46,351 bases of DNA, taken from NCBI GenBank assembly GCA_030615965.1, contig JAUWYE010000001.1, positions 1 through 46,351 of the forward strand. The letters run 5' to 3'. Made by a program: the position numbers and the translations under genes. The stretch comes from Dehalococcoidia bacterium. GTDB taxonomy: Bacteria; Chloroflexota; Dehalococcoidia; GIF9; AB-539-J10. Below are positions 3,366-45,989 of the stretch, in pieces. The notes beneath the pieces were generated by a model. It made no database searches. It was not told the origin of the DNA and saw only the letters and a list, made by a program, of their open reading frames with translations. Numbering within the stretch: position 1 is the first letter of the stretch; each line of letters opens with the position of its first letter.

Positions 3366-3370
3366 ATTAG

Positions 3371-3485
3371 CCTCCTATCCAGTCCAGTGCTGGCCTATTA
3401 TAATCATATCTAGAACGTTAATTACGCCGTCTTTTTTGACATCCTCTGGAATCCATCTCGGAGAGCCAGTCTCTCCCCAATGTTG
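3371..3485. repeat. direct repeat copy 1 (dockerin 3' end, stop codon and downstream RBS)
   Basis: 3371-3445 is identical base for base to 7177-7251 (75 bp). Similarity continues with a few mismatches to about 3485/7291. Confidence 0.9.
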
Positions 3486-7127: not shown

Positions 7128-7176
7128 AAACCCTATGAGAAACTTCCAGACCTTCGTTTTTCCCTTAATGGCATAA

Positions 7177-7291
7177 CCTCCTATCCAGTCCAGTGCTGGC
7201 CTATTATAATCATATCTAGAACGTTAATTACGCCGTCTTTTTTGACATCCTGTAGAATCCATCCTGGAGAGCCAGTCTCTCCCCAATGCTG
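7177..7291. repeat. direct repeat copy 2 (dockerin 3' end, stop codon and downstream RBS)
   Basis: Partner of 3371-3485, with a 75-bp perfect core at 7177-7251. Confidence 0.9.
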
Positions 7292-9499
7292 ACCTATCAA
7301 GATCATATCCAGAACATTGACATGGTCATCATTGTTCACATCACCAGTCCTGCTCGTGGTGACATTTCCATCGTTTACCGCGATAGGCATGGGATCTCCA
7401 TTTATATCACCTACTATGACATTTGATAAATCCAGTGTTGATGTTCCCTGTATATCCTTCGCTGTAAAGTTGATCACAGCAAACGTCCCTGGCGACGATA
7501 CTGTCTCTCCCGAAGCTGTGATAGTGCCAGCAACCCCTGTGATAGTACCAGCGCCATTATCTATTGTTCCGGGACTGAAATACGTGCTTGCTCCATTTTG
7601 GTTAAGCAGGTTTCCCTCCTCTACACTGACTGCTGTTATGAGGGAGGAATCAAAACTCAGGTCAAACTGCACCCCTGCTATGGCGACCTTTGGGTCTACA
7701 GTCACATTGACTGAGAAAGAGTCTCCGCATGTTACTTCTTGACTCGGAGGGGAGACCATTACTACGGTTACCTCTGCTGGTATCTCCTCAAAGTAGGCGG
7801 TAACGCTCTTATTGGAATTCATGGTCACTGTGGTTGGGTTTATGGCGTTATTGTCAGTGCCGCTCCAGTGGTCAAACTGCCATCCTGAGGCCGGGTTGGC
7901 AGTAAGGGTCACCACGGTCCCGGCATCAAATGTGCCACCACTGGGGTCAACACTGCCACTGCCTGATGGGCTGACACTTGTGGTCAGGGTATACTGGATC
8001 TTGATTACCTCTACTTTTTTCGGGCCAAAGACTCCAGGTGAGCCTCCAGTACGTGAATTCCTTTCATCGTTCCAAGCTTCTGGTGCTCCTGAATTGTCGA
8101 CCACATGAATTCCATACCAGTAAGTATCGGCAGAAGGATGACTGCTATCATTGAAATAACCAGAGGCGCTTTGGCCCGAAGCAGGTTTCGTATCTTGGGG
8201 ATTGGATGGCCAGTCGGGTTGGCCATCACCATTAACATCAACTGCGCGCCATAGCTCGACTCTATCCAAACCAACATCATCTGAAACAGAGTAGTAGATT
8301 CTGACAGCATCTCCTAAATTAATTGAAGTTTGTGAAACACTAAGGGATGTAACCTTTGGATAAAAGTGCCTTCTTGCTTCGGTGAGATATTGCTCATAGT
8401 TTCCATTCTTCCAAGCGCTCCATGGATTCCAGTTATTGCCATTATTAGAAATTTCCCTGGCAGCATTTGCATTGTAGTCTGGCTCAAATAGCTTGCACCT
8501 GTCATAATTTCCTCTAGGTGGAGTATGCCAATATGTGTTTATTTGCCATAATCCAATGGACATGTGTCCCGGCGCTGGGTTGTCTATGTCTCCACAAGCA
8601 GAGGGGTTTGCTCCGCTCTCCCCTGGTCGTGTACTCTCCGCTCTGGCTACAGCATAAGCTGTGACTCTTTTACTTTCCCCAGTCTGAGTACCACCTAAGC
8701 AGTCAGGGTAGGGGAAATGGCTTCTTACTAAAGCTGCGAGTTCATTACCTGACAAAGCACCTCTGTCCCAGCATGAATATGGACATGGCGTCACTTTCTC
8801 AAGGTAATCTTCAGCCGACCAGCCAACCCTGCCACCGCCATAGTCGACCTTCCAGAACCAATAGCATCCAGATACATCTTTCACAGCCCCGTACTTCGGC
8901 CCAGCCAAGATTTTGCCTTCGGTGCCCTGAGATACGGCTCCCAGCTCATTCAACTCAGGCGGCTCAGACCTGTATTTCACCCCTACGCTTGGGGTGACCC
9001 GAATGGTGTCCCCGATACTGAACTTCGTCGAGGGGGTGATGTACTTGTCCTTAAGTCCCTCTTGAACTGAGTAGCCTTGGATGCCATCACAATAGCGCAC
9101 CTCTACCCAGCACCAGCCATTGGCAGGGATTGGATTTGCGTCGAGGATCACACCGACAGCACCATTGGACTCGCACTTATATGAGGTGTAGCCTGTGCCG
9201 GGTCCAGATCTGACGTTTAGGCAGGGATCTGGAGAGGCATCAACCACTACTGTATCCCCCTTGCTGAATTTTGCTGTACAAGAGCTTGTAGAACCCACAA
9301 CTCCAAGCGGTGCACTTTGATCTGCAAAGGATACGTGCATCTCGCTCGTCACAGGTAGCTGATGTACGGAGTCATCTAACGATGGCGAGGCCAAGCCAAT
9401 GCCGCCAAGCATCGCCCCAATCATCACAAACAGAAGTGCAATCCCGAAGATTTTGCCTACCAATTTGCCTTTTTTCATTGACGCACTTCCCTTGTCCAC
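7181..9499 (-). CDS. secreted SH3b x2 / lysozyme-like (SLT) / beta-sandwich / cohesin / dockerin protein
   Basis: N-terminal hydrophobic segment KIFGIALLFVMIGAMLGG. Two SH3b-like segments (KFSKGDTVVVDASPDPCLNVRSGPGTGY; KFSIGDTIRVTPSVGVKYRSEP). Transglycosylase-like ARAESTRPG...HMSIGLWQINTYWH. Repeat YTLTTSVSPSGSGSVDPSGGTFDAGTVVTLTANPASGWQFDHWSG. The cohesin module is about 75 percent identical (hand count, 83 of 111) to that of 1554..3365. C-terminal dockerin present. The ATG of MKKGKLV at 9478 is a likelier start than GTG at 9499. Confidence 0.75.
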   Translation of the reverse strand: MDKGSASMKKGKLVGKIFGIALLFVMIGAMLGGIGLASPSLDDSVHQLPVTSEMHVSFADQSAPLGVVGSTSSCTAKFSKGDTVVVDASPDPCLNVRSGPGTGYTSYKCESNGAVGVILDANPIPANGWCWVEVRYCDGIQGYSVQEGLKDKYITPSTKFSIGDTIRVTPSVGVKYRSEPPELNELGAVSQGTEGKILAGPKYGAVKDVSGCYWFWKVDYGGGRVGWSAEDYLEKVTPCPYSCWDRGALSGNELAALVRSHFPYPDCLGGTQTGESKRVTAYAVARAESTRPGESGANPSACGDIDNPAPGHMSIGLWQINTYWHTPPRGNYDRCKLFEPDYNANAAREISNNGNNWNPWSAWKNGNYEQYLTEARRHFYPKVTSLSVSQTSINLGDAVRIYYSVSDDVGLDRVELWRAVDVNGDGQPDWPSNPQDTKPASGQSASGYFNDSSHPSADTYWYGIHVVDNSGAPEAWNDERNSRTGGSPGVFGPKKVEVIKIQYTLTTSVSPSGSGSVDPSGGTFDAGTVVTLTANPASGWQFDHWSGTDNNAINPTTVTMNSNKSVTAYFEEIPAEVTVVMVSPPSQEVTCGDSFSVNVTVDPKVAIAGVQFDLSFDSSLITAVSVEEGNLLNQNGASTYFSPGTIDNGAGTITGVAGTITASGETVSSPGTFAVINFTAKDIQGTSTLDLSNVIVGDINGDPMPIAVNDGNVTTSRTGDVNNDDHVNVLDMILIGQHWGETGSPGWILQDVKKDGVINVLDMIIIGQHWTG

Positions 9500-13921: not shown

Positions 13922-16303
13922 CTAACCTAGTCGTTTCAGAGAGAAAATCGGCTCTCTTGCGAGTATACCATAGATAGGGGTGAGATCCTTTGTTTCCCCA
14001 GTGACTATTTTGACCGTTTCTTGGTCAACCTCGTAACGCCAGCCTTGCTTTTGCACCGCTTGTTGGAATTGGATAGGAAGCGGAGGTAACTCTTGCTGAC
14101 CAAACTGGGCAAAAACGTGCAAAAGGCCCCGCGTCTGTGTCGCTGTCAGCTTTGTGACATCCAGCAAGGGTAACAAGCGTAGTGTCTCACTTTTAAGCCC
14201 GACCCAAGGTCCTTCAGTGTCTTCCCGGAACGCGAGCCAAGACAGCACCCCAGGAGTCGTGTTTAACCAGAGAACTTGGATATTTTCATGTTCCTTGGAC
14301 ACTAGGGCCTTACCGTCGCTACTGAGAACCGGTTTAAGTGTCACAGGCCACCACTCGGAAGCTAGAGCTAGTTCAGAAAGCTCCACAGCCATTAGCCGCA
14401 TCGTGTTCAGCCGTAACCTTTCCGCCACCATTAAACAGCCTCTTCTAGCCCAGAGAGTGGTCGCCTGTTGCCCCTTTCCGGGGTTTACTTCCATCCAAGC
14501 ATTCGGAGCCGTAGCTAGGGTTTTCATAATAGCAGAGTCATGTCCCCACAAAGCGGGGTAGGAAGTCTTGTGCTGGACTTTTCGGAATTCCTTCATCCTG
14601 TGGGGCCTATCGCTACCAATCTTGTCAGCAATTTCCTCTAGGCTTATGGTAGAAAAGGAAAGCAAGCTCGTTTCCCCGGGCACACGGAATTGCCCTGTGG
14701 TAACAAAGAAATGAGTAATACGGTTAAGTGCAGTCTGGGCGAACGGGGCTAGCTGTCCCCAGGTGTCTACGGAATCAGCCAAGGTGGAAGGCGAAACGGC
14801 ATATGCCTCACCCAGCTTTTCTTCTCCAATCATCAAGTCTTGGTGGCTGGCATTAGCGTTTTCCAACACATCGTAGGCACTGGTATGCGTTGCCAAAGTC
14901 TTGCTGAGCTCGACAAATTTTCCTGAGACCACAATTGACTCCATCTCGTTCCTGGGTTTTCGCCAGAGATTCGCCACGATTGTTCTCACTCGAGGCTCGT
15001 CCGCATCTTCAGCTCGTTTTCTAGCAACCAGCAGGATTTCACTCAGGCTCGTATTCTCACTGAAATTCCAGTCATTGGGAGCCTGGTGACTGGTAATTAT
15101 CAATTCAATGTTATACTTATCAAGCAGGAGTTCCCTCGCCTTTCTCCAGGCTAGTCCCGATAGAAGAGTGCGAGGTATCACCAGGGCAAGTCGTCCTCCG
15201 TTGTGAAGACATCTGTCCGCCACAGCTATGAAAACCGCACCTAGCCCTGCTTGCCCAATACCCGAGAGTTTTCTTTTGTTAAGTAGTTTGGAAAGATGGC
15301 TTTGAAGCTGACGTCGCTGAGCCTTCGGCAAAGCACCAAAGAGCAGATTGCCGCCCATGCTCCGAGTAAAGGGCGGATTCATAATAACAAGGTCAAGGTC
15401 TTCTACAGTTAACGGTGAGAGTTCAGCGACAGATATACCTTTCTTTTCCGGTGCAGCGACTATCTCACCCGTCAAAGCTATGGCCGGTGTTAGTTGTTTG
15501 GATTCGAGGAGATCAACGCTTCCTAGTCGCGGCTTCGTGCCTTCGGCGGTTAGCGGAAGCGCATAAATTTTTGTCGTGCCGAATATAGACGAGGGATTGT
15601 GAAGAGCAAGGGTAACAGCAGAGAGGTGAGCAGCAAAACCCAGGACGTCTAGGCCGAGAAAGACTTTTTCAAGCAGCACCTTGTGCAGTTCCTTGGGATG
15701 AGCCTCTAAGTCATGCTCAGCTGAGGTTGTTACATGCTTATCTAGGATTGCGCTGTAAGCAGCGGATAGCAGTGTGCCGGATCCACAGGCTAAATCTCCC
15801 GCCCCGAAGTTAGCAATGCTATCAACATTTGCCCATTCAAAGCGCCAGTGGTCGTTAGGAGCGTCCAGTGAAAAACGAGCCAAAAGATAAGCCGCCGGAA
15901 CGCTAGTGTAGTACGTCGCTTGGTATTTGGCGATGTCACTCATGAGTAACCGATGATATATACGTCCCATAAGGTCGTGACGGAGAAGCGCTCTAGAAGA
16001 GGCAATTTTCTGAGCTTCTATAGCCAGGACCTTGAGAGCATCCTCAACGCCAGGTGAAGCGGGTATCGCGTTTATGAGATCTAACGCCATCTTAAAAATA
16101 GGTACGTAGTTCTTTCTGAGAATCTTCTCCCAGGCATTGGCAAAGCTGATTTTGAAGGGCAGTTGCGAAAGTGATGAGGCAAGTGTAGGAATATCACGGT
16201 CACTCCTGGCTAACACCTCCTGGAATAGCATAGCATCCACGAGGGTAAGTTCCCCCATCTTAATTATGGATACTAATTCACTCGCCTTTTTCTGGTTCTT
16301 CAT
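13922..16303 (-). CDS. N6-adenine DNA methyltransferase (gamma class) with a large C-terminal TRD-like region (MmeI/PglX-like body)
   Basis: Motif order: ...KYQATYYTSVPAAYLLA..., motif I FGAGDLACGSGTLLSAAY, motif IV VIMNPPFTRS. About 480 aa follow NPPF. There is no N-terminal nuclease domain. Confidence 0.85.
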   Translation of the reverse strand: MKNQKKASELVSIIKMGELTLVDAMLFQEVLARSDRDIPTLASSLSQLPFKISFANAWEKILRKNYVPIFKMALDLINAIPASPGVEDALKVLAIEAQKIASSRALLRHDLMGRIYHRLLMSDIAKYQATYYTSVPAAYLLARFSLDAPNDHWRFEWANVDSIANFGAGDLACGSGTLLSAAYSAILDKHVTTSAEHDLEAHPKELHKVLLEKVFLGLDVLGFAAHLSAVTLALHNPSSIFGTTKIYALPLTAEGTKPRLGSVDLLESKQLTPAIALTGEIVAAPEKKGISVAELSPLTVEDLDLVIMNPPFTRSMGGNLLFGALPKAQRRQLQSHLSKLLNKRKLSGIGQAGLGAVFIAVADRCLHNGGRLALVIPRTLLSGLAWRKARELLLDKYNIELIITSHQAPNDWNFSENTSLSEILLVARKRAEDADEPRVRTIVANLWRKPRNEMESIVVSGKFVELSKTLATHTSAYDVLENANASHQDLMIGEEKLGEAYAVSPSTLADSVDTWGQLAPFAQTALNRITHFFVTTGQFRVPGETSLLSFSTISLEEIADKIGSDRPHRMKEFRKVQHKTSYPALWGHDSAIMKTLATAPNAWMEVNPGKGQQATTLWARRGCLMVAERLRLNTMRLMAVELSELALASEWWPVTLKPVLSSDGKALVSKEHENIQVLWLNTTPGVLSWLAFREDTEGPWVGLKSETLRLLPLLDVTKLTATQTRGLLHVFAQFGQQELPPLPIQFQQAVQKQGWRYEVDQETVKIVTGETKDLTPIYGILAREPIFSLKRLG

Positions 16304-24329: not shown

Positions 24330-25826
24330 ATGCAAGGGCGCACTTGGAAAAATATTGAAATTGACACAGCGGAGGAAATCAAAACACACCTTTTAGAAAA
24401 CGGCGGGGTTGAAGAAGAAGTTAAAAGCCAGCATGAAGGATGGCAGGTTAAATTTTCTGATTGTACATTCACTTATTACAAAAAAGGTACGATCTATAGC
24501 ACACCTTCAAATTCCAACGATCTCGCTGTGCTCGAAGCATGGAAGCAGATAGATTCGGTTGTGGGTTCTGCTTATGCCCTTCCTACAAAGGATTTTCTCA
24601 TAGGGTTAGATGAAACGGGAAAAGGTGAGGTTATTGGGCATACTGTTCTTACTGGTGTGATTTTCCCTAAGGAAATTTTTGATAAAGTAGATTTGCTAAT
24701 AGGCCCTGCAGATACAAAGAAGAGGCATGAGTTTGAATATTGGGATAAAATATTCAGAAAACTAGATCAATTCAGAAGCTTAGGGTTTGATTTTATCACC
24801 GAAAAAATTCCACCTTGGCATGTGGATAAATACAACCTCAATAAAATCATGGATGTGGTTTACCAAAAGATTTTATCTATCTTTCTCAGAAGAGCTCAAA
24901 TTGAAGATTGCAGAATTGTTTTGGATGATTATGGAATAGGCCGTACATTAAAACGGTTTCTGAATTTTTTGGAAATGCAGGGGGCGGAAGTAGTAGTAAC
25001 CACAAATTCAGAGGATAAATATCTTGAGGCAAAAACAGCGTCTTTAACCTCTAAGAGGACAAGAGAGGCCGTTATGAAGGCAATAAACGACAAGCCCGAA
25101 TTTCAAATAGACAGTTTATCCATAGGTTCTGGTAATGCTGGAGACAAGCAAACTTCGGAATGGCTCAAAAAGTGGTATGCATCAGGCGAACAATGGCCGT
25201 GGTTTGTTAAGAAGTCTTTCAAGACTATTTGGGAGATAGAAGGAAAGACTGGTAAGCCCAAAAAGGTGATTCCTCCTATTAAAGAAGAATTGCTATCGAA
25301 AGATTTCATTGAGGAATTCAATAGAGGAAATCTATCTGTAAAGTCCCTTTTTCTTGTATGTTCACATTGTGGAGCAATAAACAAGGCAATATCTTATGCT
25401 ATATCTAAAGCGAAATGCCCTTCGTGTAATAAATTTATTGATGATGTGGGTATCACTCTCAAATACTATTGCAGTTACTCTGTGCCAGATAGCAACATAA
25501 TTATGAGAGGGTTATTATCCAAAGACCTTGAAAACAAGAGGTTTTTCGAGGGTTTTACTATAGTCATTCCTCCTGTTGTTAGAAGAGAATGCGACAACTC
25601 TGGTGGGAAAAAAGAATTTGAGAGACTGGCAAAATTTGCATCGATGGGGAGAATAAAATTGGAGGAACCAGGCAAAGTTGAAGATATACCAGAGGGTTTA
25701 TCAAGTCTCGAACGGGATGAAAGAATTATGGAGTACGTTTTAGAGTATAACGCTGTATTTATCACGGCTGACAATCAAATGAAAGCTCAGGCGGTGTCGA
25801 AAGATGTATTTACAATATTTGCCTAA
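24330..25826 (+). CDS. RNase HIII-like domain / Zn ribbon / PIN domain fusion protein
   Basis: N-terminal GWQVKFSDCTFTYYKKGTIYSTPSN resembles the RNase HIII N-terminal (TBP-like) domain. RNase HII/HIII catalytic pattern: IGLDETGKGEVIGHTVLTGVI (DE), PADTKK, VLDDYG, NSEDKYLEAKTAS. Zn ribbon CSHCGAINK...CPSCNKF. C-terminal PIN pattern: VPDSNIIMRG ... IVIPPVVRRECDN ... ERDERIMEYVLEYNAVFITADNQMKAQA. Confidence 0.65.
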   Translation: MQGRTWKNIEIDTAEEIKTHLLENGGVEEEVKSQHEGWQVKFSDCTFTYYKKGTIYSTPSNSNDLAVLEAWKQIDSVVGSAYALPTKDFLIGLDETGKGEVIGHTVLTGVIFPKEIFDKVDLLIGPADTKKRHEFEYWDKIFRKLDQFRSLGFDFITEKIPPWHVDKYNLNKIMDVVYQKILSIFLRRAQIEDCRIVLDDYGIGRTLKRFLNFLEMQGAEVVVTTNSEDKYLEAKTASLTSKRTREAVMKAINDKPEFQIDSLSIGSGNAGDKQTSEWLKKWYASGEQWPWFVKKSFKTIWEIEGKTGKPKKVIPPIKEELLSKDFIEEFNRGNLSVKSLFLVCSHCGAINKAISYAISKAKCPSCNKFIDDVGITLKYYCSYSVPDSNIIMRGLLSKDLENKRFFEGFTIVIPPVVRRECDNSGGKKEFERLAKFASMGRIKLEEPGKVEDIPEGLSSLERDERIMEYVLEYNAVFITADNQMKAQAVSKDVFTIFA

Positions 25827-29967: not shown

Positions 29968-30133
29968 CTTTAGCCTCCAGTTGCTTTCTAGCCTCACTCA
30001 TAATCCGCTCATAGTAGGTTGGGTTTTCCTTTTTCAGTTGCTCCATTACGTACTGGCCCTTACCACCGCCGAGCAGGGCACGGCAGGCGTAGTCGATATT
30101 GATTTGGTCTAGCGTCTCTTGTAACGTTTCCAT
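29945..30133 (-). CDS. hypothetical element protein (62 aa)
   Basis: Its start overlaps the ligase stop (TAATG), which suggests translational coupling. Confidence 0.5.
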   Translation of the reverse strand: METLQETLDQINIDYACRALLGGGKGQYVMEQLKKENPTYYERIMSEARKQLEAKDVKLPKL

Positions 30134-31068
30134 TATGACACCATCTTTCTGAATGTCGGGAAGCGGAGCTTTGCGCTCGGCTCAAACGGCATATACAGAT
30201 ACCTAACCTCACACTTTAGCTCTGGTCGTGCCCAGAACTTCACCGGCCTATCGGTGTCAGGTTTAGCCTCAAACGGACACCCTCCCTTGTAGAGAGTCAA
30301 AGCGGCCAGCGTCGCACTAAGTTGGCTGTGGGTAAACCCGCTACCCACATTACCCACATAGGTCAGCTTGCCATCTACCATCTCCCCTAGTATCAGGCTA
30401 CCAAATGTGTCGCTCCTCTCATTCTCTCCCTCAGTTACCCCGCAGATATAGTAGGGTGCCTCCTTGAAGTTTTTAACCTTCAGCCAGGTAGGCCAACGCT
30501 TCCCTTCAAGGTATGTCGCATACTTATCCTTTGCCATTATCCCTTCCAGGCCCTTCTGTTTTTGCTCTTCAAATAGGCTCTCTCCAGAATCCGCCCACTC
30601 CAAAGGCTTTGCGTAGGGGCCTGGTGCAAGGATGTCGTTCAGGATTGCCTTGCGTGTTATAAGGGGCTGTTGCTTGACGCTTTCACCATCAAGGTAGAGG
30701 ATGTCAAAGACGTAGTAGTAAATGGGATACTGGGTGCGGGCAATCCTTATACGGAATGGGCTGTCCAGATGTATCCTATGCTGAATAGTGTTGAAGTCCA
30801 CGCCGGCAATCTCACCATCAAGGACACAGGGTTTCCCGCTCTGCCGATATAGTTCGGCTAGTTCGGGAAACCTGTGAGTGATGCTTTTACCAGTTCTGCT
30901 CTGTAACTCTGTTTTGCCGGCAAGGACGGCGACACACCTTACGCCGTCTATCTTCTTCTCATAGAGCCAGTCCTTGCGGTCAAGGTCTTTTGCGGACCCC
31001 AGTTCCGCTAACATTGGCTGTATTTTCGTCCTTTGTACTTCGGTGAAAAACTTAGGTTGGTCGTCCAC
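30133..31068 (-). CDS. ATP-dependent DNA ligase (LigD ligase-domain-like core)
   Basis: Motif I YEKKIDGVR (KxDG), motif III VLDGEIAG, motif IV LEGIMAKD, motif V TWLKVKN. GTG start 5 nt after GGAGGTG. Confidence 0.85.
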   Translation of the reverse strand: MDDQPKFFTEVQRTKIQPMLAELGSAKDLDRKDWLYEKKIDGVRCVAVLAGKTELQSRTGKSITHRFPELAELYRQSGKPCVLDGEIAGVDFNTIQHRIHLDSPFRIRIARTQYPIYYYVFDILYLDGESVKQQPLITRKAILNDILAPGPYAKPLEWADSGESLFEEQKQKGLEGIMAKDKYATYLEGKRWPTWLKVKNFKEAPYYICGVTEGENERSDTFGSLILGEMVDGKLTYVGNVGSGFTHSQLSATLAALTLYKGGCPFEAKPDTDRPVKFWARPELKCEVRYLYMPFEPSAKLRFPTFRKMVS

Positions 31069-31117
31069 TGGTTCACCTCCTTTCTGGACAATACTTGTCC
31101 TAATTTTCGCTGGGATT

Positions 31118-31882
31118 TTACTTTACCCCAACCAGCTTGAGACTCTCGATTAGTGCTTCGGCAACATCGGCTACGGGTGCTTTCTCCGGGACCGCGGTGA
31201 TGACCTTACCCGCCAATTTAGCCTCAATTAGCTGCTCGACGGCCTCTCGGTAGTCGTTGTGATACTTGGGATGCTCAAACTCCGCTGTCATCGCCTTAAC
31301 CAGAGCCAGTGCCATCTCCATCTCCCTGTCCGATATCAGTGCCATCTGCCTGGGCTTCAGGTCCTCATACGGTCTCAGTTCATCGGCGTAGTGCAGGGTT
31401 TGGAGTAGCATTATCCCGTCATAAGGTCTGATTGCGGACAGATGTTCCCTATCACGGTAGGTTAGCTTGGCAATGGCAACCAGATTAACCGATTCCATAG
31501 CCTTTAGGAGTAGAGTAAAGGCTTTTACCCCGGCATCTTCGCATGATAGGAAGTAGCAATCGGCATAAGCCCTTTTGTCTATCCCGGTGCTGTCCACAAA
31601 CTCCACCACCTCGATCTGCTTTAGGCTCTTTAGCGGTAAGCTCTGGAAGTCTGTTTCCTCGAGGATAATGTGCTGAGTCTCGCTTAACTCGTAGCCTCGC
31701 TTAATCTCGGCAGTTTCCAGCTTGCATTCACACACAGGACACCACTTCGGCATCTGTATTCTGCTTCCGCAAGCGGTGTGATACTGGTGAAAAGGCACTC
31801 GCCTATCATCTGTAGCGGTGTAGAGCTTGGCTGAGATTGACACCATCCCGAAGTTGATACTACCTTTCCAGATTGACCTCAT
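31118..31882 (-). CDS. ku: Ku DNA end-binding protein
   Basis: MRSIWKGSINFGMVSISAKLYTATDD is the canonical bacterial Ku N-terminus. 254 aa. Confidence 0.9.
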   Translation of the reverse strand: MRSIWKGSINFGMVSISAKLYTATDDRRVPFHQYHTACGSRIQMPKWCPVCECKLETAEIKRGYELSETQHIILEETDFQSLPLKSLKQIEVVEFVDSTGIDKRAYADCYFLSCEDAGVKAFTLLLKAMESVNLVAIAKLTYRDREHLSAIRPYDGIMLLQTLHYADELRPYEDLKPRQMALISDREMEMALALVKAMTAEFEHPKYHNDYREAVEQLIEAKLAGKVITAVPEKAPVADVAEALIESLKLVGVK

Positions 31883-38788: not shown

Positions 38789-40252
38789 ATGGGATGTTAT
38801 AGTTATAATTGTGTCGCAACAATGACCATCGTTGGACTACCAGACAAGGCAGTCCAGGAGGCAAGAGAAAGAGTAAGGTCAGCCATAAGAAACTCCTACT
38901 ACAAGTTCCCTAACAGGCGTATTACTGTCAACCTGGCTCCAGCAGACTTAAAAAAGGAAGGCCCTGCTTACGACTTACCCATAGCCATAGGCATACTGAT
39001 TAGCTCAGACCAGCTAAACGCTGACCTTTCCCATAGTATCTTTTTAGGGGAACTCTCTTTGGATGGCAAGCTACGCCATACCCATGGGGTATTGCCTATG
39101 GTAGCTTTAGCCCGTGATAAAGGCTTATCTACCATATTCGTGCCTTTGGATGATGCTAAAGAGGCTTCCCTTATAGATAATATACATATATTCCCTACGG
39201 AATCGTTAGCGCAACTGGTTGTTCACCTTCAAGGCGAAGTAGACATCCCGGAGTACCATAGCGAGCTAAATTGGGAACAGGAATTTCGCCCTAGTTACGC
39301 CTTCGACCTCATTTATATCAAGGGTCAGGAGCATGCCAAGAGAGCTCTGGAGATAGCGGCGGCAGGAAGACACAATATCCTCATGGGTGGCCCGCCGGGA
39401 AGCGGCAAGACTATGTTGGCTCGTTCTTTGCCCTCGATACTTCCCCTGTTGACCATGGAGGAAGCTATCGAGGTAACCAAGATTTACAGCGTTAGTGGAT
39501 TGTTGCCGCAAGACACTCCCATCATTGTAGAGCGTCCTTTTCGTTCCCCTCACTATACTATTTCCCATGCTGGCTTGGTGGGAGGGGGGCAATGGCCAAG
39601 GCCCGGGGAGATAAGCCTGGGGCACCACGGGGTGCTTTTTCTGGATGAATTCCCTGAGTTTGGGCATGTTACTCTGGAATCGCTGCGCCAACCCATAGAA
39701 GATAGAACAATTACCGTCAGCCGTGCTCGTGGCAGTGTTACCTTCCCTGCTAGCTTTATGCTGGTTGCAGCTATGAACCCCTGCCCCTGTGGGTATTATG
39801 GCGACCCGTTTAAGGAATGTAAGTGCTCGTCAGGAGAAATCTCTCGCTATCATAAAAGGATAAGCGGACCATTACTGGACCGTATTGATATCTTTGTTGA
39901 TGTTCCCCATATTGATTATGAAAAACTCACTGAAGATAAGCCCGGGGAAAGCTCGGATAAAGTCAGGGCCAGGGTCAAGGCGGCGCATGAAATACAGCTT
40001 GGGCGTTTCCAGGGGACGAAGCTGAGGTGCAATGCCGATATGACACCCAAGGAGGTGAAGGAATTCTGCACGGTGGAACCAGCAGCCCAGAGCCTGCTTC
40101 GCGCCGCCATGAAGCAGCTTCATCTCACCGGCCGTGCCTTCCATCGCATCCTCAAGCTTTCCCGCACCATCGCCGACTTAGAGCACAGCGACATCATCAA
40201 AACACATCATATGGCTGAAGCTCTACAGTACCGGCACAAGGAAATAATCTAA
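38789..40252 (+). CDS. comM: ComM/YifB Mg-chelatase-like AAA+ protein, with the 5' end replaced or truncated
   Basis: TIVGLPDKAVQEARERVRSAIRNS...ITVNLAPADLKKEGPAYDLPIAIGIL, Walker A GPPGSGKTMLA, ...GVLFLDEFPEF.... The first 12 codons (MGCYSYNCVATM) are unrelated to ComM. An in-frame TAG lies 9 nt upstream of the ATG. Roughly 20-30 N-terminal residues of a full-length ComM are missing. Confidence 0.85.
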   Translation: MGCYSYNCVATMTIVGLPDKAVQEARERVRSAIRNSYYKFPNRRITVNLAPADLKKEGPAYDLPIAIGILISSDQLNADLSHSIFLGELSLDGKLRHTHGVLPMVALARDKGLSTIFVPLDDAKEASLIDNIHIFPTESLAQLVVHLQGEVDIPEYHSELNWEQEFRPSYAFDLIYIKGQEHAKRALEIAAAGRHNILMGGPPGSGKTMLARSLPSILPLLTMEEAIEVTKIYSVSGLLPQDTPIIVERPFRSPHYTISHAGLVGGGQWPRPGEISLGHHGVLFLDEFPEFGHVTLESLRQPIEDRTITVSRARGSVTFPASFMLVAAMNPCPCGYYGDPFKECKCSSGEISRYHKRISGPLLDRIDIFVDVPHIDYEKLTEDKPGESSDKVRARVKAAHEIQLGRFQGTKLRCNADMTPKEVKEFCTVEPAAQSLLRAAMKQLHLTGRAFHRILKLSRTIADLEHSDIIKTHHMAEALQYRHKEII

Positions 40253-40365
40253 ACCTAACAATAAGAGAACAGGCTAGTACTCTGTTTGAGAGACCGAGCT
40301 GCCTAGCAAAAAGCTGGGCATTTCCCCCTTTTAAGCCATCAGTGGAATTGTGGATAACTAACCTC

Positions 40366-40408
40366 TTGACAAAACAAAATATTTGATGTAATATTCCCAT
40401 TATGGGAA
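40366..40408 (+). promoter_or_regulatory. higB promoter with an overlapping palindromic operator
   Basis: TTGACA (40366-40371), 17 nt, TAATAT (40389-40394). The perfect palindrome TTCCCA-tta-TGGGAA (40394-40408) lies at the expected transcription start. Confidence 0.5.
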
Positions 40409-40444
40409 CAATTATTAAGATAACCTATTACCCTATAACCAGAA

Positions 40445-40732
40445 ATGAAATTATTAGGCAAAAAAATATTAGACGATTTCAAACAAAAACATGCTGATGC
40501 CCAGTCGCAGATTGAGTCATGGATAGCAGAAATCGAGGAGGCCGAATGGAATACCCCGCATGACCTCAAGAGCAGGTATCCGAAAGCTAGTCTCATAGGG
40601 GATCAGCAGGTAGTTTTCGATATTTGCGGAAACAAGTATAGACTGCTAGCACTAGTCAGCTATAAAAATGGGATGGTACTGGTAAAGAAGGTCGGAACAC
40701 ATAAGGAATACGATAATTGGAATATAAATTAA
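40445..40732 (+). CDS. higB: HigB-family type II toxin (RelE/ParE superfamily)
   Basis: MKLLGKKILDDFKQKHADAQSQIESWIAEIEEAEWNTPHDLKSRYPKASLIGDQQVVFDICGNKYRLLALVSYKNGMVLVKKVGTHKEYDNW matches the HigB_toxin pattern (...W.......W.....k......s.......vFni.GNkyRli..i.y....v.i...GTH.EYD). Confidence 0.85.
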   Translation: MKLLGKKILDDFKQKHADAQSQIESWIAEIEEAEWNTPHDLKSRYPKASLIGDQQVVFDICGNKYRLLALVSYKNGMVLVKKVGTHKEYDNWNIN

Positions 40733-40740
40733 TTAACAAT

Positions 40741-41955
40741 ATGAGCAAAATTAAAGTCATAAAAACTGAACAAGACTATAGAGAAGCTCTCAAATTGCTC
40801 GAGGAGCTAATAAGCCATGACCCAGATCCCGAATCAGAAGCAGGTGAACAACTCAGTCTTCTTGGCACTCTCATTCAAGATTACGAGGAGAGAATACTCC
40901 CGGAAACACTCCCTGACCCGATTGAGGCGATCAAATTTAGAATGGAACAAGTTGGCCTTAAACCCGCTGATCTAATTCCTTACATCGGAAGCAGAAGCAG
41001 AGTATCAGAGATTCTCTCAGGCAAACGCCAACTTACTCTCGAAATGGTAAGAGCTCTTGAGTCAGGACTTGGTATCCCTGCCAAGGTCTTAATCCAAGAA
41101 TACAATCAAGACTTGGAGGCACAATATCAACACTGGGACACGAGTCTCGTTAGAAGTATGGAGACACGAGGATATTTTGGGGATATGTCATTGGAGAAAT
41201 ACGACAAAGTAGAACTATTAAAGAGTTTCTTTTCAATACTAGGAACTAAGGCACAACCTGCTGCGCTACTACGTAAAGCTAATTATCGCTCCCCTCGTAC
41301 GGATAAAAATGCGTTATCTGCCTGGATGATTCGGGTACTTCAGAAGGCAGAAAGGATAAAAGTACCCACTAAATACAAACATGGGGTGATTGCCCTCGCT
41401 TTTATGCAAGACTTTGTAAAGTTAAGCGTACAAGAAAATGGTCCGGTACTCGTCAAAGAGCACTTAAAAAAATATGGGGTCAAACTGGTTATTGAACCTC
41501 ATCTTCCCAAAACTAAGCTCGATGGGGCTGCAATATTAACAGAGAAAGACAATCCTGTGATTGGTTTAACTCTCAGATATGACCGCCTGGATAATTTCTG
41601 GTTCACGTTAATACATGAGTTAGCCCATATTGTTCTACATTACAATCAGGACATTGAACTTTTTTATGATGAATTTGATGATGTGAAAGGTTTTAATATT
41701 GGCGCCAAAGAGGAAGAAGCTGATCGTTTGACTAGTGAGGCTCTAGTCCCTTCGGACAAATGGGAAATCAGCCCAGCTAAACTCGTTCCTTCATCCATAG
41801 CTGCAAATAGCTTGGCAAAGGAGCTAGGTGTGCATGTTGCCATCGTTGCTGGGAAAATAAGACACGAAGGTGGCAAATGGACATACCTAAATAGCATCAT
41901 CGGTCAAGCAAAAGTTCATAAATATTTCCCTGACGAAAAATGGAATAAAAAATGA
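40741..41955 (+). CDS. higA: HigA-like HTH antitoxin fused to an ImmA/IrrE (M78) metallopeptidase domain
   Basis: ATG at 40741, 8 nt after the higB stop. The N-terminus MSKIKVIKTEQDYREALKLLEELIS...EAIKFRMEQVGLKPADLIPYIGSRSRVSEILSGKRQLTLEMVRAL is typical HigA with an XRE HTH. The C-terminal half carries the zinc motif FTLIHELAHIVLH (HExxH) and EEEADRLTSEALVP, typical of ImmA/IrrE. Confidence 0.8.
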   Translation: MSKIKVIKTEQDYREALKLLEELISHDPDPESEAGEQLSLLGTLIQDYEERILPETLPDPIEAIKFRMEQVGLKPADLIPYIGSRSRVSEILSGKRQLTLEMVRALESGLGIPAKVLIQEYNQDLEAQYQHWDTSLVRSMETRGYFGDMSLEKYDKVELLKSFFSILGTKAQPAALLRKANYRSPRTDKNALSAWMIRVLQKAERIKVPTKYKHGVIALAFMQDFVKLSVQENGPVLVKEHLKKYGVKLVIEPHLPKTKLDGAAILTEKDNPVIGLTLRYDRLDNFWFTLIHELAHIVLHYNQDIELFYDEFDDVKGFNIGAKEEEADRLTSEALVPSDKWEISPAKLVPSSIAANSLAKELGVHVAIVAGKIRHEGGKWTYLNSIIGQAKVHKYFPDEKWNKK

Positions 41956-43109
41956 TTACGTTCAACCCGAAGCACTATGTACCGATACTAAAATGGAAAC
42001 GTGCCGAGCAAAGGGCACTTGAGGCGTTGGATGAAAAAAAGAAGGACGCCATAACGCCCCTGATTGAGTTAGTAATGCCAATGGTGCCGCTTTACAAGAA
42101 AAAGGAGGGGAAGGACGAGAAAAAAATCAAAAAAACTCAAGATGAATTATTCACAGAAATAGTATTTAAATTCAAGGAAAAAAGAATAAAGCAAATCCCT
42201 GAAGAGATTTTGCGCTCGTGGGGTGCTAGACCAGTATTTCTTGATTTCAGCTTACTATACGAAGCCCAACTTACAACTCAACTAAAAGTAAATAGCTTAA
42301 ATAAAATTATACCTGTGGGAATTGATATGGGTCTTAAGATAATACCCGTCCTTAATTTGAATGATGACCCAAAAATAAAGGAAGCGATTTGCTCGCTCTT
42401 AGGAAAGAATAACCAAGGGATCTGTCTAAGGATAGCGCCTTCTGATCTTTCGAATATGAAAGTGCTGAATAAGAAAGTCAGAGATTTCCTTCGAGATTTT
42501 AGTTTACCTAGAAAAAGCATTGACCTTCTCATTGATATTAAAGAAATAAAGGAGAGAGGTGGTCAATACTTACAATTTATAAATGCAAGCCACGAGATAG
42601 AGAATCTATTGGAATGGAGAAATTTTATTTTTGCAAGCGGGGCATTCCCAGAAGACCTATCCGAATGCAAGCGCGACGAAGCCACATTGCTTCCTCGCTT
42701 TGATTGGCAAAATTGGTTACATTGTTCCAACGCAAAGAAGCTTAAAAGGAACCCCACCTTTGCCGATTATACTATTCGTAATCCTATTTTTTACGAGTTG
42801 CTCCAGTATTACAATCCTACTACTAGTATTAAATATTCACTTGAAAATGATTGGTTAGTTATGAAAGGAAGGGTGCGAGAGCTTGAGCTTTATCTGGCAA
42901 ATGCAAAACTTTTAGTCGCAGATACTGATTACTTTTATGGAGAAAACTTTAGCTGGGGGGATAAAAACATTGCACAAAAAGCCAAATATTATCACCAATA
43001 CGTTAAAAATCGCTCAGCTAAAGGGACTGGGCGTACCGAAGATTGGATCGCATGGGGCATGAATCACCACTTGACATCGGTGGTAGATCAGATCGCCAAT
43101 CTTCTCTAG
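41952..43109 (+). CDS. Beta-family protein (Pfam Beta_protein / sce7725-like), function unknown
   Basis: Its start overlaps the higA::immA stop (ATGA at 41952-41955). The N-terminus HYVPILKWKRAEQRALEALDEKKKDAITPLIELV and later ICLRIAPSDL, DLLIDIKEI and NPTFADYTIRNP follow the Beta_protein family pattern as I recall it. Confidence 0.65.
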   Translation: MITFNPKHYVPILKWKRAEQRALEALDEKKKDAITPLIELVMPMVPLYKKKEGKDEKKIKKTQDELFTEIVFKFKEKRIKQIPEEILRSWGARPVFLDFSLLYEAQLTTQLKVNSLNKIIPVGIDMGLKIIPVLNLNDDPKIKEAICSLLGKNNQGICLRIAPSDLSNMKVLNKKVRDFLRDFSLPRKSIDLLIDIKEIKERGGQYLQFINASHEIENLLEWRNFIFASGAFPEDLSECKRDEATLLPRFDWQNWLHCSNAKKLKRNPTFADYTIRNPIFYELLQYYNPTTSIKYSLENDWLVMKGRVRELELYLANAKLLVADTDYFYGENFSWGDKNIAQKAKYYHQYVKNRSAKGTGRTEDWIAWGMNHHLTSVVDQIANLL

Positions 43110-43689
43110 AGACAAGTAAGGTATATCTTACTTTTTCCTTGAGAGTATCTACGTTTAATGTGTTTGCTAACCTCTCGTATATTGATTCCCGCGGTTTAGA
43201 ACGCACTCCGGTCGCCTTATTTTTTTCTTCTAAAATTTGTAACGCTTCCTCTCTCCACAGTAATCGTGCGATGGAAATTCCAACCTGCTTTTGGTTGTCT
43301 TCAGCTTTACGAATAGTATGGAAAATTACTTTATTATTTCTATTAACTTTTGCAACCATGATACCCCACCAATCAGGAATAAGATTTATTGCATCGTATA
43401 AATGACGCTTTCCTACAACTAAAGTTAGTCTATCAAAGACGTCATTGAATTCGTTCATTTGTTCTGGTAATCGTTCCAGCGTATCGCGATCGCTTTTTAT
43501 TTCATAACCATGCATAATTCCATTTATTACTACAATATCAATTCTAGCCGTACCATGCCGGACACCCAGTTCCTCAATGATTCGCAGTTCATCATCTCGT
43601 GCGTGGCGCCTTTCTAAATCCTTCTTTAGAGCGGATCTTATGATTAAATCGTTTGTAGAAACTATGTTGTTAAAAACGTTTTTCTTCAT
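43018..43689 (-). CDS. sce7726-family-like protein with a PD-(D/E)xK-type core
   Basis: IRSALKKDLERRHARDDELRIIEELGVRHGTARIDIVVINGIMHGYEIKSDRDTLERLPEQMNEFNDVFDRLTLVV contains D...E-x-K (IDIVV...YEIKSD). The order of elements matches my memory of sce7726 proteins. A TATAAT -10 lies upstream at about 43722-43727. The 3' end overlaps the convergent Beta gene by 92 nt. Confidence 0.6.
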   Translation of the reverse strand: MKKNVFNNIVSTNDLIIRSALKKDLERRHARDDELRIIEELGVRHGTARIDIVVINGIMHGYEIKSDRDTLERLPEQMNEFNDVFDRLTLVVGKRHLYDAINLIPDWWGIMVAKVNRNNKVIFHTIRKAEDNQKQVGISIARLLWREEALQILEEKNKATGVRSKPRESIYERLANTLNVDTLKEKVRYTLLVSREDWRSDLPPMSSGDSCPMRSNLRYAQSL

Positions 43690-44366
43690 AAGATAAACAC
43701 TTAGATTATCAGCATTTTATTTGATTATACTACACTGGATTAGAATAGCATATAAGCCCCCTTAGAAACTGGTAGGGAGCAGTAAAATCATTTACTCTGT
43801 AAGGTTATAATCGGGTTTTTGAGTTTACATCAAACTGTTTAATTACTAATACTCCCTCTTTAAGAATGTCGATGTATCCCAAGTCCTAAAGAGTTATAAG
43901 AGGCTTTGCACTGGGATCATTGTAGTCTTTAATGTGATGTTTTTCCGATTTCGCCTGGCGGAGAAAATCAAACTTTCACATCCAGCTCGAACTTGAGATT
44001 CTTGTTTGAAATCTCTCCCGTCAAAACGGGGAGAGACTGAAACAAATTGATACTCCCTGAACCATTTACTACCGGAATATGCGCTATTATCTTTGCCTCC
44101 CCCCTTCTTCTAATCGATGATTGCGTCATCGACCAAATATCCCAGAAGCTTCTCTAAACCCTGAGGCGTGAAAGAATCCTTTCCTTCACGTGTATACTTT
44201 CAGCAAGCTCTTGATCAGTTGTTACCTGGTATTAAAGTCATTATAATGCTCTCAGGCAGATAGGTAAAAGAATTATCAGGTTAACATTCTTAGAAATGTG
44301 GATGTCTATTCTTGGCAGCAAAGTGCTATGATATAATTAAGCTATCTATTCCCGCAGTGACAAGTT

Positions 44367-45989
44367 TTGAGCCGAGGTAACGCAGTGCAGGCACAGACGA
44401 CCAGCTCTAAAGGGCTACCCTCTGTATCGCTAGTCATACCAGCTTATAATGAGGAAAAATATCTGCCTTTGTGTTTAGAGTCAATAAAAAAGCAGGACTA
44501 CGCCGCAGAGCATGAGGTCATCGTGGTTGATAATGCCAGCACGGACAATACGGCCAAGATAGCTCTCGATTGGGGAGCAAAGGTTGTCTATGAGAGTAAG
44601 CGAAGTCCTGCGTGCGCTCGGCAAAAGGGCGCCGAAGCAGCAACAGGCGAGATTATCGCCTTCATCGATGCCGATACTCAAGCACCAACTTGCTGGCTTT
44701 CAACCATCGTGTCACGCTTCGTTCGGGAGCCAGAGACGGTGGTGATAAGTGGACCCTATGCCTACTTCGATGCTGGCAGAATTGCCAAGATTGCCTCTTA
44801 CAGTGGTAATTTCATCAACATTAGCATAGACCAGCTTTTTCGTAAAGCTTTTAATAAGGGTGGTGCTCTATGGGGGTGTAACTTCGCCGTGCGACGCTCA
44901 GCGTTACTGGAAGTAGGTGGATTTGATACCAGCATCAAGTTTTATGGCGAGGAGTACGAACTTTCCTTGAGACTGAAGAGAGTTGGTATGGGAGGCATTA
45001 TCCCCCGGCTCTTTGTCCTTACCTCGGCTCGTCGCTTGAAGGGGCTGGGCGTGGTGACTCAATACTGGAACTGGATTGTGAATTACTTCTCGGTCCTTTT
45101 CTGGTATAAACCAATTTCCGAAAAGCTGGAAGACTGGCCGGCCAAAGCGTGGCAAACAGTGGTTGCCAGTTTTTCCTCGCAGAGAGTGAGAGCATCCTTG
45201 TGGTATGTTGCCCTTCTCTTTGGCTTACTTTGGTTGCATATCAGCCCCGTGATTGAGGCAGTGGGAAGGCTCATTTACGTTTTTGATATTGGTGTTTTGG
45301 GTACACTGTTTGCCTACCACGGGATCAACCCTCGCTCCCGGTTCTATGGCAAGGTATGGTCTAATGGCAACCGGAACCATTCTCGGATTGCGCTGACTTT
45401 TGATGACGGCCCAAACGAGCCATACACCTCTCATGTTCTCAGCATATTGGAGCAATATAAAATAAAAGCGACCTTCTTTGTCATTGGGCAAAACGCTCGG
45501 CGCCATCCTGAGATCTGCCGGCGGATAGTGACAGCAGGAAATGTGATTGGGAATCACTCCTACCATCATCACAAGTCACTATGCCTGAGATGGGGCAAGG
45601 CGGTTGCTCGTGACATTGAGCTGGCTCATCAGACAATCTATGAGTGTACCGGATTTGAGCCAAAGCTTTTTCGTCCTCCCTACGGCTTCCGTACCCCCTG
45701 GCTGATGCGAACTGTTCGCCACCTCGGGTACACGGTAGTTACCTGGGACAACATGACCAGTGACTGGAAGGCAAATAAGTCTGGCGAGGAGATTGTACGG
45801 ACTATTGTTCAGCGGGTAAAGCCAGGGAGCGTAATTGTCCTGCATGATGGTCGCGATAGCAGACCAAGCTATGACCGTAGCCAGATGCTCCAGGCTCTTC
45901 CCTTCGTTATTGAGACCTTAAAGGATAGGGGTTTTGATTTTGTCACCATACCTGAGCTCCTTGAGTCGGAAGGAGAGTCTTCAGTCTAG
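44367..45989 (+). CDS. bifunctional family-2 glycosyltransferase / NodB-type polysaccharide deacetylase membrane protein
   Basis: GT2: SVSLVIPAYNEEKYLPLCLESIKKQDY...VIVVDNASTDNT...FIDADT. TM segments sit mid-protein. NodB: ALTFDDGPNEPYTSHVL...GNHSYHHH. The alternative GTG start at 44385 has a better RBS (GAGGT, 6 nt) than TTG at 44367. Confidence 0.85.
   Translation: MSRGNAVQAQTTSSKGLPSVSLVIPAYNEEKYLPLCLESIKKQDYAAEHEVIVVDNASTDNTAKIALDWGAKVVYESKRSPACARQKGAEAATGEIIAFIDADTQAPTCWLSTIVSRFVREPETVVISGPYAYFDAGRIAKIASYSGNFINISIDQLFRKAFNKGGALWGCNFAVRRSALLEVGGFDTSIKFYGEEYELSLRLKRVGMGGIIPRLFVLTSARRLKGLGVVTQYWNWIVNYFSVLFWYKPISEKLEDWPAKAWQTVVASFSSQRVRASLWYVALLFGLLWLHISPVIEAVGRLIYVFDIGVLGTLFAYHGINPRSRFYGKVWSNGNRNHSRIALTFDDGPNEPYTSHVLSILEQYKIKATFFVIGQNARRHPEICRRIVTAGNVIGNHSYHHHKSLCLRWGKAVARDIELAHQTIYECTGFEPKLFRPPYGFRTPWLMRTVRHLGYTVVTWDNMTSDWKANKSGEEIVRTIVQRVKPGSVIVLHDGRDSRPSYDRSQMLQALPFVIETLKDRGFDFVTIPELLESEGESSV

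Follow-up and report, generated by a model that had tools for sequence, protein, structure and literature searches.

PD-lambda-2 is an abortive-infection type system that was selected for phage resistance from Escherichia coli (E. coli) ECOR42 (Vassallo et al. 2022, PMC9519451). Its published proteins carry the Pfam domains PF09907, PF06114, and PF14350, and in E. coli the system defends against lambda-vir. The second protein (B) is toxic by itself and is neutralised by the HigB-like first protein (A). The third protein (C) is required for defence, while it is dispensable for neutralisation. The validated E. coli clone includes only ~390 bp of flanking DNA beyond C (PMC9519451). Here we describe a relative of this system in a Dehalococcoidia bacterium, on a stretch of 46,351 nucleotides (nt) that is referred to as the window (contig JAUWYE010000001.1, positions 1 to 46,351). 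Positions 40344-43760 of the window are quite probably a compact, horizontally spread anti-phage cassette, in which PD-lambda-2 has a four-gene form.

Another system that bears on this cassette is gop-beta-cII of the satellite phage P4, reportedly described by Ghisotti in 1990. In the P4 genome the three genes are laid out as gop (+), beta (+), and cII (-). The system protects against lambda and P1; gop is its toxic element and is counteracted by beta (Rousset et al. 2022, PMC9122126). A phage accessory gene triggers the cell killing (bioRxiv 10.1101/2023.04.06.535777).

The genes of the cassette are denoted by letters: A (HigB-like), B (helix-turn-helix (HTH)-M78), C (Beta), and D (cII/sce7726). 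Their open reading frames (ORFs), with lengths in amino acids (aa), and the sites associated with them are as follows.

40349-40357, + strand: 9-mer TGTGGATAA, the reverse complement of the DnaA-box consensus TTATCCACA, just 5' of the -35 hexamer
40366-40394, + strand: sigma-70-type promoter of A-B-C (TTGACA at 40366-40371, 17 nt, TAATAT at 40389-40394)
40394-40408, + strand: perfect 7+1+7 palindrome TTCCCAT-T-ATGGGAA, abutting the -10 hexamer
40445-40732, + strand: gene A, ORF of 95 aa
40741-41955, + strand: gene B, ORF of 404 aa, with an ATG start as in its homologues
41952-43109, + strand: gene C, ORF of 385 aa
43018-43109: shared 3' region of the convergent genes C and D, 92 nt in the window and 50 nt in the ancestral form (43060-43109)
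43018-43689, - strand: gene D, ORF of 223 aa, convergent to C
43724-43729, - strand: putative -10 element of D (TATAAT), 34 nt 5' of the D ATG, as read from the sequence

An earlier reading of the window from its letters (hereafter the first-pass annotation) had placed the same four ORFs, and the ORF listing confirms all of them. This includes the 385-aa Beta ORF whose ATG shares ATGA with the stop of B, and the convergent 223-aa ORF with its 92-nt overlap. A and B are separated by an 8-nt gap. A, B, and C are on the same strand in the layout of one operon, with a single promoter-like site upstream, and no additional ORF exists within the cassette. A longer form of gene B (412 aa, TTG start at 40717) is not supported by the alignment, in which the homologues start at ATG. 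The block had also been described as AT-rich, with about 32% GC. It is indeed lower in GC than the remainder of the window (39.0% vs 46.2%), but the overall value of 32% does not hold; single 60-nt lines go down to 18%. DNA similarity to other loci is limited to ~40344-43694 and extends to 43757 in one case. These sharp limits define the extent of the mobile unit.

A, B, and C match the PADLOC models of PD-lambda-2 with E values of 1.4e-39 (PD-Lambda-2_A, residues 1-93 of the 94-position model), 1.5e-142 (PD-Lambda-2_B, residues 1-399 of the 402-position model), and 4.3e-39 (PD-Lambda-2_C), respectively. Their Pfam trio (PF09907, PF06114, and PF14350) and their gene order are identical to those of the published system. 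On these matches, genes A to C are almost certainly PD-lambda-2, a catalogued and validated system. The candidate novel system of the first-pass annotation is thus resolved into a known one, and no new system is discovered here. The accompanying guess of an abortive-infection or anti-mobile-element system was right in general terms; all parts belong to catalogued defence systems. By analogy with E. coli, a role in abortive-infection defence is reasonably likely in this host as well.

Compared with PD-lambda-2 of ECOR42, the window has the same three proteins in the same order and operon. Unlike the published definition, which has three genes, the clade found here adds a convergent cII/sce7726 gene that overlaps C. 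The host is also non-enterobacterial. When the window cassette was compared by blastn with 5,426 complete E. coli genomes, the sole match was a 92-nt stretch of an ImmA gene in a P4-like satellite.

The four-gene form was surveyed in the best 80 of 224 confirmed B homologue loci, taken from one-genome-per-species contigs, by searching the four window proteins against the six-frame ORFs of these 80 loci. A, B, and C on one strand with D convergent to them are found in all 76 loci that have enough downstream DNA; the other four, left out of the count, are truncated contigs. These loci come from ~15 phyla. Their hosts include Patescibacteria lineages, Aminicenantes, Schekmanbacteria, Planctomycetota, Dehalococcoidia, Omnitrophota, and Gammaproteobacteria, and further Bacteroidota, Nitrospiraceae, Acidobacteriota, Atribacterota, Actinomycetota, Ignavibacteriota, and others. 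Identity of B to the window protein is 51-77% across the 80 loci, and values of 65-77% are reached across phyla. Such identity over the candidate phyla radiation, Planctomycetota, Acidobacteriota, Gammaproteobacteria, Actinomycetota, and other groups is a striking inter-phylum spread, and the cassette brings its own sigma-70-type promoter with it. No mobility gene or flanking repeat was identified at the cassette ends of the homologous loci, whose flanks were not systematically annotated. In the protein search, one close B homologue carries a Thaumarchaeota label.

C and D overlap at their 3' ends in all 76 informative loci and in the window. The most common overlap is 50 nt including both stop codons (43/77), and the range is 26-101 nt. 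In the window, the ancestral stop codon of D (TTA on the + strand, 43060-43062) reads TGA, and D gains 14 codons. The overlap of 92 nt therefore results from the loss of this stop codon. No conserved hairpin or bidirectional terminator was found in the overlap, with RNAalifold predicting no pairs on 29 loci. Without a conserved hairpin, the C and D transcription units probably run into each other, and colliding transcription is a plausible route for mutual control of C and D.

PADLOC and the original paper define PD-lambda-2 by three genes, and D is on the opposite strand with a promoter-like element of its own, as would be the case if it were an unrelated downstream neighbour. This explanation is effectively refuted by the comparative data and can hardly be held any longer. 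D accompanies A, B, and C at 76 of 76 loci in many phyla, always with the 3' overlap, and the same pairing with Beta recurs in 72 of 75 prophage loci and in P4. Nor are the loci near-identical recent copies, as the B identities of 51-77% indicate. The four-gene form appears to be the normal natural form of PD-lambda-2. Note that PADLOC and similar tools, by using a three-gene definition, leave out a gene that this widespread clade invariably carries.

The regulatory DNA upstream of A is also conserved. The A-B-C promoter agrees with the consensus at 10 of 12 positions. When 77 upstream regions (110 nt 5' of A) are aligned, a TTGAC(A/T) -35 element and an A/T-rich -10 element are found at the same place in almost all of them. 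The palindrome is the sole such site in the window. Taken within the window alone it is weak evidence, as 13 of 100 shuffles yield a site with one mismatch or less. Across loci, TTCCCA-N3-TGGGAA with at most two mismatches is present in 74 of 78, at -42 to -54 from the A start codon (33 loci with no mismatch, 30 with one, and 11 with two). In the aligned loci the conserved element reads TTCCCA-N3-TGGGAA(C) and directly follows the -10 element. Both the consensus-like promoter and the palindrome of the first-pass annotation are thus found where they had been placed. Conservation across phyla at a fixed position makes the palindrome a strong operator candidate, and it is probably an operator. 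The HigA-type HTH of B would be its obvious binder, since the N-terminus of B matches E. coli HigA (E 4e-14).

The exact 9-mer TGTGGATAA occurs at about -90 to -98 from the A start in 16 of 78 loci, including the window, against a background of 0.003 per 160 nt. It marks the left boundary of the DNA that the loci share. It was considered as a flanking repeat or target-site duplication and rejected, because it is not enriched on the D side (2/71, vs 16/78 on the A side). The 9-mer might tie cassette expression to DnaA or replication status.

On the D side, the homologous loci have an extended -10 element (TGnTAAAAT) ~35-50 nt upstream of the D start. We infer that D is transcribed from its own promoter, of which TATAAT is the candidate -10 element. 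The TTCCCA palindrome is absent upstream of D both in the window and in the homologous loci.

A matches Pfam HigB_toxin (PF09907) with E 3.8e-28. It aligns over its full length with E. coli HigB structures (5IFG/5YCL, E 2e-7) and has the C-terminal THKEYD motif in common with them. B has the Pfam domains HTH_3 and Peptidase_M78 (PF06114). Residues 7-117 of B are the part that matches E. coli HigA (5IFG_B), and the peptidase motif HELAH is intact at residues 292-296. H292, E293, and H296 are invariant, as are many other residues of B. The two family calls of the first-pass annotation, a canonical HigB and a HigA with a C-terminal HExxH peptidase of the ImmA/IrrE type, are both borne out. B also has a weak match to PADLOC capP (E 3.4e-8).

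The A-B part resembles HigB-HigA of E. coli K-12 (YgjN/YgjM; 5IFG, 5YCL) in its toxin-first order, in the full-length alignment of A with HigB, in the HigA-like N-terminus of B, and in the candidate palindromic operator at the promoter. The HigA part here is, however, fused to a region of ~280 residues that carries the M78 peptidase domain, and the toxic partner in E. coli PD-lambda-2 is B, not the HigB-like protein. ImmA, IrrE, and CapP-type M78 peptidases cleave HTH repressors. ImmA-ImmR (ICEBs1), IrrE-DdrO (Deinococcus), and CapP-CapH (CBASS) share with the cassette an M78 HExxH peptidase, an XRE-type HTH, and a palindromic operator, which is a candidate one here. They differ in that here HTH and peptidase are in one polypeptide and a HigB-type partner is added.

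These likenesses are in line with the model of the first-pass annotation, in which a HigB toxin is held by a self-destroying, protease-gated HigA::ImmA antitoxin and the switch acts over a Beta/sce7726 nuclease pair regarded as uncharacterised. The fold and motif of A are those of HigB, B has the HigA-type N-terminus and an intact M78 HExxH, cleavage of HTH repressors by M78 peptidases is established, B has its weak capP match, and the conserved operator fits repression by B. The gating of HigB conflicts, however, with the E. coli experiment, where the roles are reversed (B is toxic and A rescues; PMC9519451). The promoter-like element of D lacks the operator palindrome, so the switch is not obviously in control of D. 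Also, the Beta/sce7726 pair, said there to have no assigned function, is the beta/cII pair of the anti-phage system gop-beta-cII and has already been characterised through it (PMC9122126). Overall, the model is unlikely.

Parts of B are found outside the cassette as well. In a tblastn search of plasmids and phages with B, only more distant A-B pairs or HigA-only fragments were found. Two viral contigs (L097 and L098) and Stx1a-converting phages such as LC744179.1 have only the N-terminal HigA-like part of B and lack the peptidase half (residues 1-121 at 76-77% identity, or 5-154 at 43%). In the Stx phages this part is located in the immunity region. These fragments may be anti-defence decoys or simply phage repressors.

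C matches Pfam Beta_protein (PF14350) with E 2e-58, in agreement with the Beta family call made before, and PADLOC 'beta' with E 1.3e-8. The further suggestion that C is sce7725-like failed in the profile search: neither C, P4 beta, nor an E. coli beta has an NCBIfam match even at E <= 10, and the sce7725 family was rejected for C. Five residues of C (D98, R160, D195, D272, and H373) are invariant across P4 beta and members from E. coli, Agrobacterium, Rhodococcus, and Bacillus. In the AlphaFold2 model of C (pLDDT 91.7, pTM 0.92) strands alternate with helices, and D98, R160, D195, and D272 are located inside the modelled strands 94-98, 157-161, 190-198, and 269-272 or at their ends. Nearly all matches of this model in the PDB by Foldseek are TIM barrels, with weak scores (E >= 1.7e-4). 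They include designed barrels, pterin-binding methyltransferases, UV-damage endonuclease, and aldolases. Foldseek gave a single close structural relative, an uncharacterised Gordonia phage protein, and no sequence relatives of C were found in the PDB. C is predicted to be a divergent TIM barrel, and its invariant residues look like an enzyme active site rather than parts of a passive antitoxin. A resemblance to a TIM-barrel enzyme, not to a nuclease partner, is a further point against the protease-gated switch over a nuclease pair. Beta has previously been treated as an "antitoxin"; the model and the invariant active-site-like residues suggest that it may be an enzyme.

D is a relative of P4 cII, in the sce7726 / Phage_P4_cII family. 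It matches NCBIfam sce7726_fam (NF033832) with E 1.4e-50 (171.8 bits vs a cut-off of 70), as its first assignment as sce7726-like had it, and PADLOC 'cll' with E 4.3e-25. P4 cII matches the same NCBIfam model with E 2.5e-44 and is named 'sce7726 family protein' in RefSeq. PF26915 Phage_P4_cII is a newer Pfam name for this family. Between D and P4 cII there is 27% identity (E 8e-13). Across 11 sequences with 23-74% identity to D, P4 cII included, residues E40, D51, E63, and K65 are invariant. They fall on consecutive strands (37-45, 48-55, and 58-64) of the D model, in which the order of elements is alpha-beta-beta-beta-alpha-alpha-beta-beta (pLDDT 49). A profile search of the PDB with D gave only spurious TFIID matches and no sequence relative. 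The placement of the invariant residues on successive strands is like that in PD-(D/E)xK nucleases, and D may be a nuclease of this type. Of the ID...YEIK nuclease-like core proposed earlier, the residues are real and invariant; the PD-(D/E)xK fold itself was not proven by Foldseek, Pfam, or PDB searches.

The Beta-cII arrangement of C and D is that of P4. As in P4, a Beta gene is followed by a convergent cII/sce7726 gene and a toxic module is located in front, and the P4 system is likewise anti-phage and toxin-antitoxin-like (PMC9122126). The differences are several. The window has no gop (none of the four proteins has a PADLOC gop match) and has HigB and HTH-M78 instead. P4 beta and cII are separated by a 27-nt gap with an annotated terminator, and P4 cII is ~70 residues longer at its C-terminus. 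There are no P4 satellite genes in the window, where the neighbours are comM and a glycosyltransferase-deacetylase gene, not cos / psu-delta-sid.

The Beta/cII pair is found in many other contexts. Among plasmid matches to Beta, 17 of 21 are annotated as 'beta family protein' next to 'sce7726 family protein' (in E. coli, Bacillus, Rhizobiaceae, Rhodococcus, and Acinetobacter), and one more (Marinibacterium) has an unannotated cII ORF. A convergent Beta is present in 77 of 80 prophage or viral loci found by the cII profile, and 72 of 75 prophage pairs overlap, most often by 41 nt. The module in front of Beta varies. It is gop in P4, a 227-aa hypothetical protein with a stand-alone ImmA/IrrE in an E. 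coli P4-like satellite at tRNA-Leu (L087 3841-7036), GNAT with ImmA/IrrE in other E. coli islands (L090, L091 2184-5296), and DUF6932 with HTH-M78 in Agrobacterium and Marinibacterium. No recognisable front module is found with Beta/cII in 73 of 80 prophage loci, within a limited query set, and Bacillus, Rhodococcus, and E. coli phage-plasmid replicons likewise have the pair by itself. The E. coli forms with the 227-aa hypothetical protein or GNAT (with ImmA/IrrE, beta, and sce7726) fall outside the cited definitions of PD-lambda-2 and gop-beta-cII.

In several prophages, a CI-like repressor with an HTH and a Peptidase_S24 domain immediately precedes Beta/cII in the same orientation (L122 4335-5036, L126 5743-6447, and L129 6614-7306, all viral contigs). 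The position after a CI-like repressor is classic for exclusion genes expressed by a lysogen. This arrangement is another layout in which an HTH and a self-cleaving peptidase precede Beta.

The picture is that of a core pair, Beta/cII, with interchangeable front modules, of which PD-lambda-2 is the HigB/HTH-M78 version. It is possible, at somewhat less than an even chance, that PD-lambda-2 and gop-beta-cII are branches of one family. Its core would be a convergent, 3'-overlapping pair of Beta (a TIM-barrel enzyme) and cII (a PD-(D/E)xK-like nuclease), with swappable toxin/peptidase modules in front. Native PD-lambda-2 would then have four components, with cII taking part in their function as a second effector, a specificity factor, or a brake; its expression would be set by convergent transcription, and it would have been missed because the E. 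coli clone is cut just past C.

A different division of labour would make Beta/cII the actual defence core (sensor and nuclease effector) and the upstream genes accessories that can be exchanged, whether toxins or regulators. It can be partly reconciled with the main reading of a PD-lambda-2 cassette with a fourth gene and differs on which part senses and kills. It agrees with the pair standing alone in the 73 prophage loci and on several phage-plasmid or plasmid replicons, with the varying upstream partners (gop, hypothetical protein and ImmA, GNAT and ImmA, or DUF6932 and HTH-M78), with the invariant catalytic-looking residues in both proteins, and with the requirement for C in E. coli. Toxicity in E. 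coli maps to B, however, and neutralisation to A; the three-gene E. coli clone without a complete D still defended; and in P4 gop is toxic and beta counteracts it (PMC9122126). This version is therefore rather doubtful.

Several points weigh against the main reading, that of a PD-lambda-2 anti-phage cassette with a fourth gene. The experimental support comes from the E. coli homologue and not from this locus or clade. With ~390 bp of flank the E. coli clone has no complete D gene, and it still defends, implying that D is dispensable for lambda defence there or is absent from ECOR42. Pairwise BLAST between C and P4 beta is weak (E 8e-4), and the TIM-barrel matches of C have TM values of only 0.3-0.4. 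The AlphaFold2 model of D is poor at pLDDT 49, which is due to a shallow alignment in which all members are at least 64% identical. In Foldseek the best matches of this model are tRNA-splicing endonuclease and CinB at a non-significant E >= 0.009, and a Pfam scan of 21 D-family members at E <= 5 gave noise only and no PD-(D/E)xK families. Operator binding, peptidase activation, and antisense coupling, which come up in the mechanism below, are all things that we infer. Finally, more distant HigB and HigA::M78 pairs (~40% identity) are found on plasmids without C or D, so A-B can act alone, possibly as a plain addiction module.

In another explanation, the whole block serves a mobile element as a toxin-antitoxin cassette for addiction or stabilisation and takes no part in phage defence in this organism. 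The related plasmid A-B pairs stand amid other toxin-antitoxin modules, horizontal transfer of the cassette is clear, and toxicity and rescue in E. coli are toxin-antitoxin-like. This explanation is nevertheless improbable, given that phage resistance is the trait for which the E. coli homologue was selected and that C is needed for it, that Beta/cII is found in the P4 defence hot spot and beside prophage repressors, and that the window copy is chromosomal with no mobility genes adjoining.

For the cassette as a PD-lambda-2 defence system with a fourth gene, the following mechanism can be proposed, each step of which, taken singly, is tentative and rather less likely than its failure. B would bind TTCCCA-N3-TGGGAA by the -10 element through its HigA-type HTH, leading to autorepression of A-B-C. 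A and B would keep each other inactive in a HigBA-like complex. The enzyme-like Beta might relay a phage cue that upsets the complex, with the HExxH peptidase of B as a possible means. Growth arrest would be brought about by the RNase fold of A, the peptidase of B, or both, and the infected cell would be sacrificed. D would be made from its own constitutive-looking promoter and, probably as a PD-(D/E)xK-type nuclease, would be a second effector or a modulator. Colliding or antisense transcription over the shared 3' ends could tie its expression to that of the operon.

The conserved operator and the convergent overlap are concrete handles for studies of regulation, and a shared Beta/cII core suggests that several catalogued systems work by one mechanism. 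In the limited literature searched, no published statement of a link between PD-lambda-2 and gop-beta-cII was found, and nothing past the original papers on the mechanism of PD-lambda-2, PF14350, or PF26915. Four points seem to be absent from that literature: an invariant fourth gene whose 3' overlap with C is conserved, the Beta/cII link, the conserved operator, and the enzyme-like fold of Beta.

The cassette is flanked in the window by two genes.

38789-40252: comM, before the cassette
44367-45989: glycosyltransferase/polysaccharide-deacetylase gene, beyond the cassette

A comM hot spot had been suggested for this location. A homologue of comM within 6 kb is absent at all 80 homologous loci, so the adjacency is incidental.

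Elsewhere in the window, the following features were noted.

1554-9499, - strand: large secreted-type proteins with cohesin, dockerin, GH113, and lysozyme-like (SLT_3) domains
13922-16303, - strand: Eco57I-type adenine-methyltransferase-like ORF, 793 aa
19681-22785, + strand: SNF2 helicase, 1034 aa, a full-length match to PADLOC DrmD of DISARM (E 1e-144), 17 kb from the cassette
24330-25826, + strand: RNase HII-like ORF, 498 aa
25959-26789, + strand: HNH_5 protein
30133-31882, - strand: adjacent genes for Ku and an ATP-dependent DNA ligase, a bacterial non-homologous end-joining pair

The DrmD region is a stretch of lower GC (about 18-26 kb) and may be a partial DISARM-like or restriction island. 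The proteins at 1554-9499 suggest a cellulosome-like or cell-surface polysaccharide apparatus in this host.

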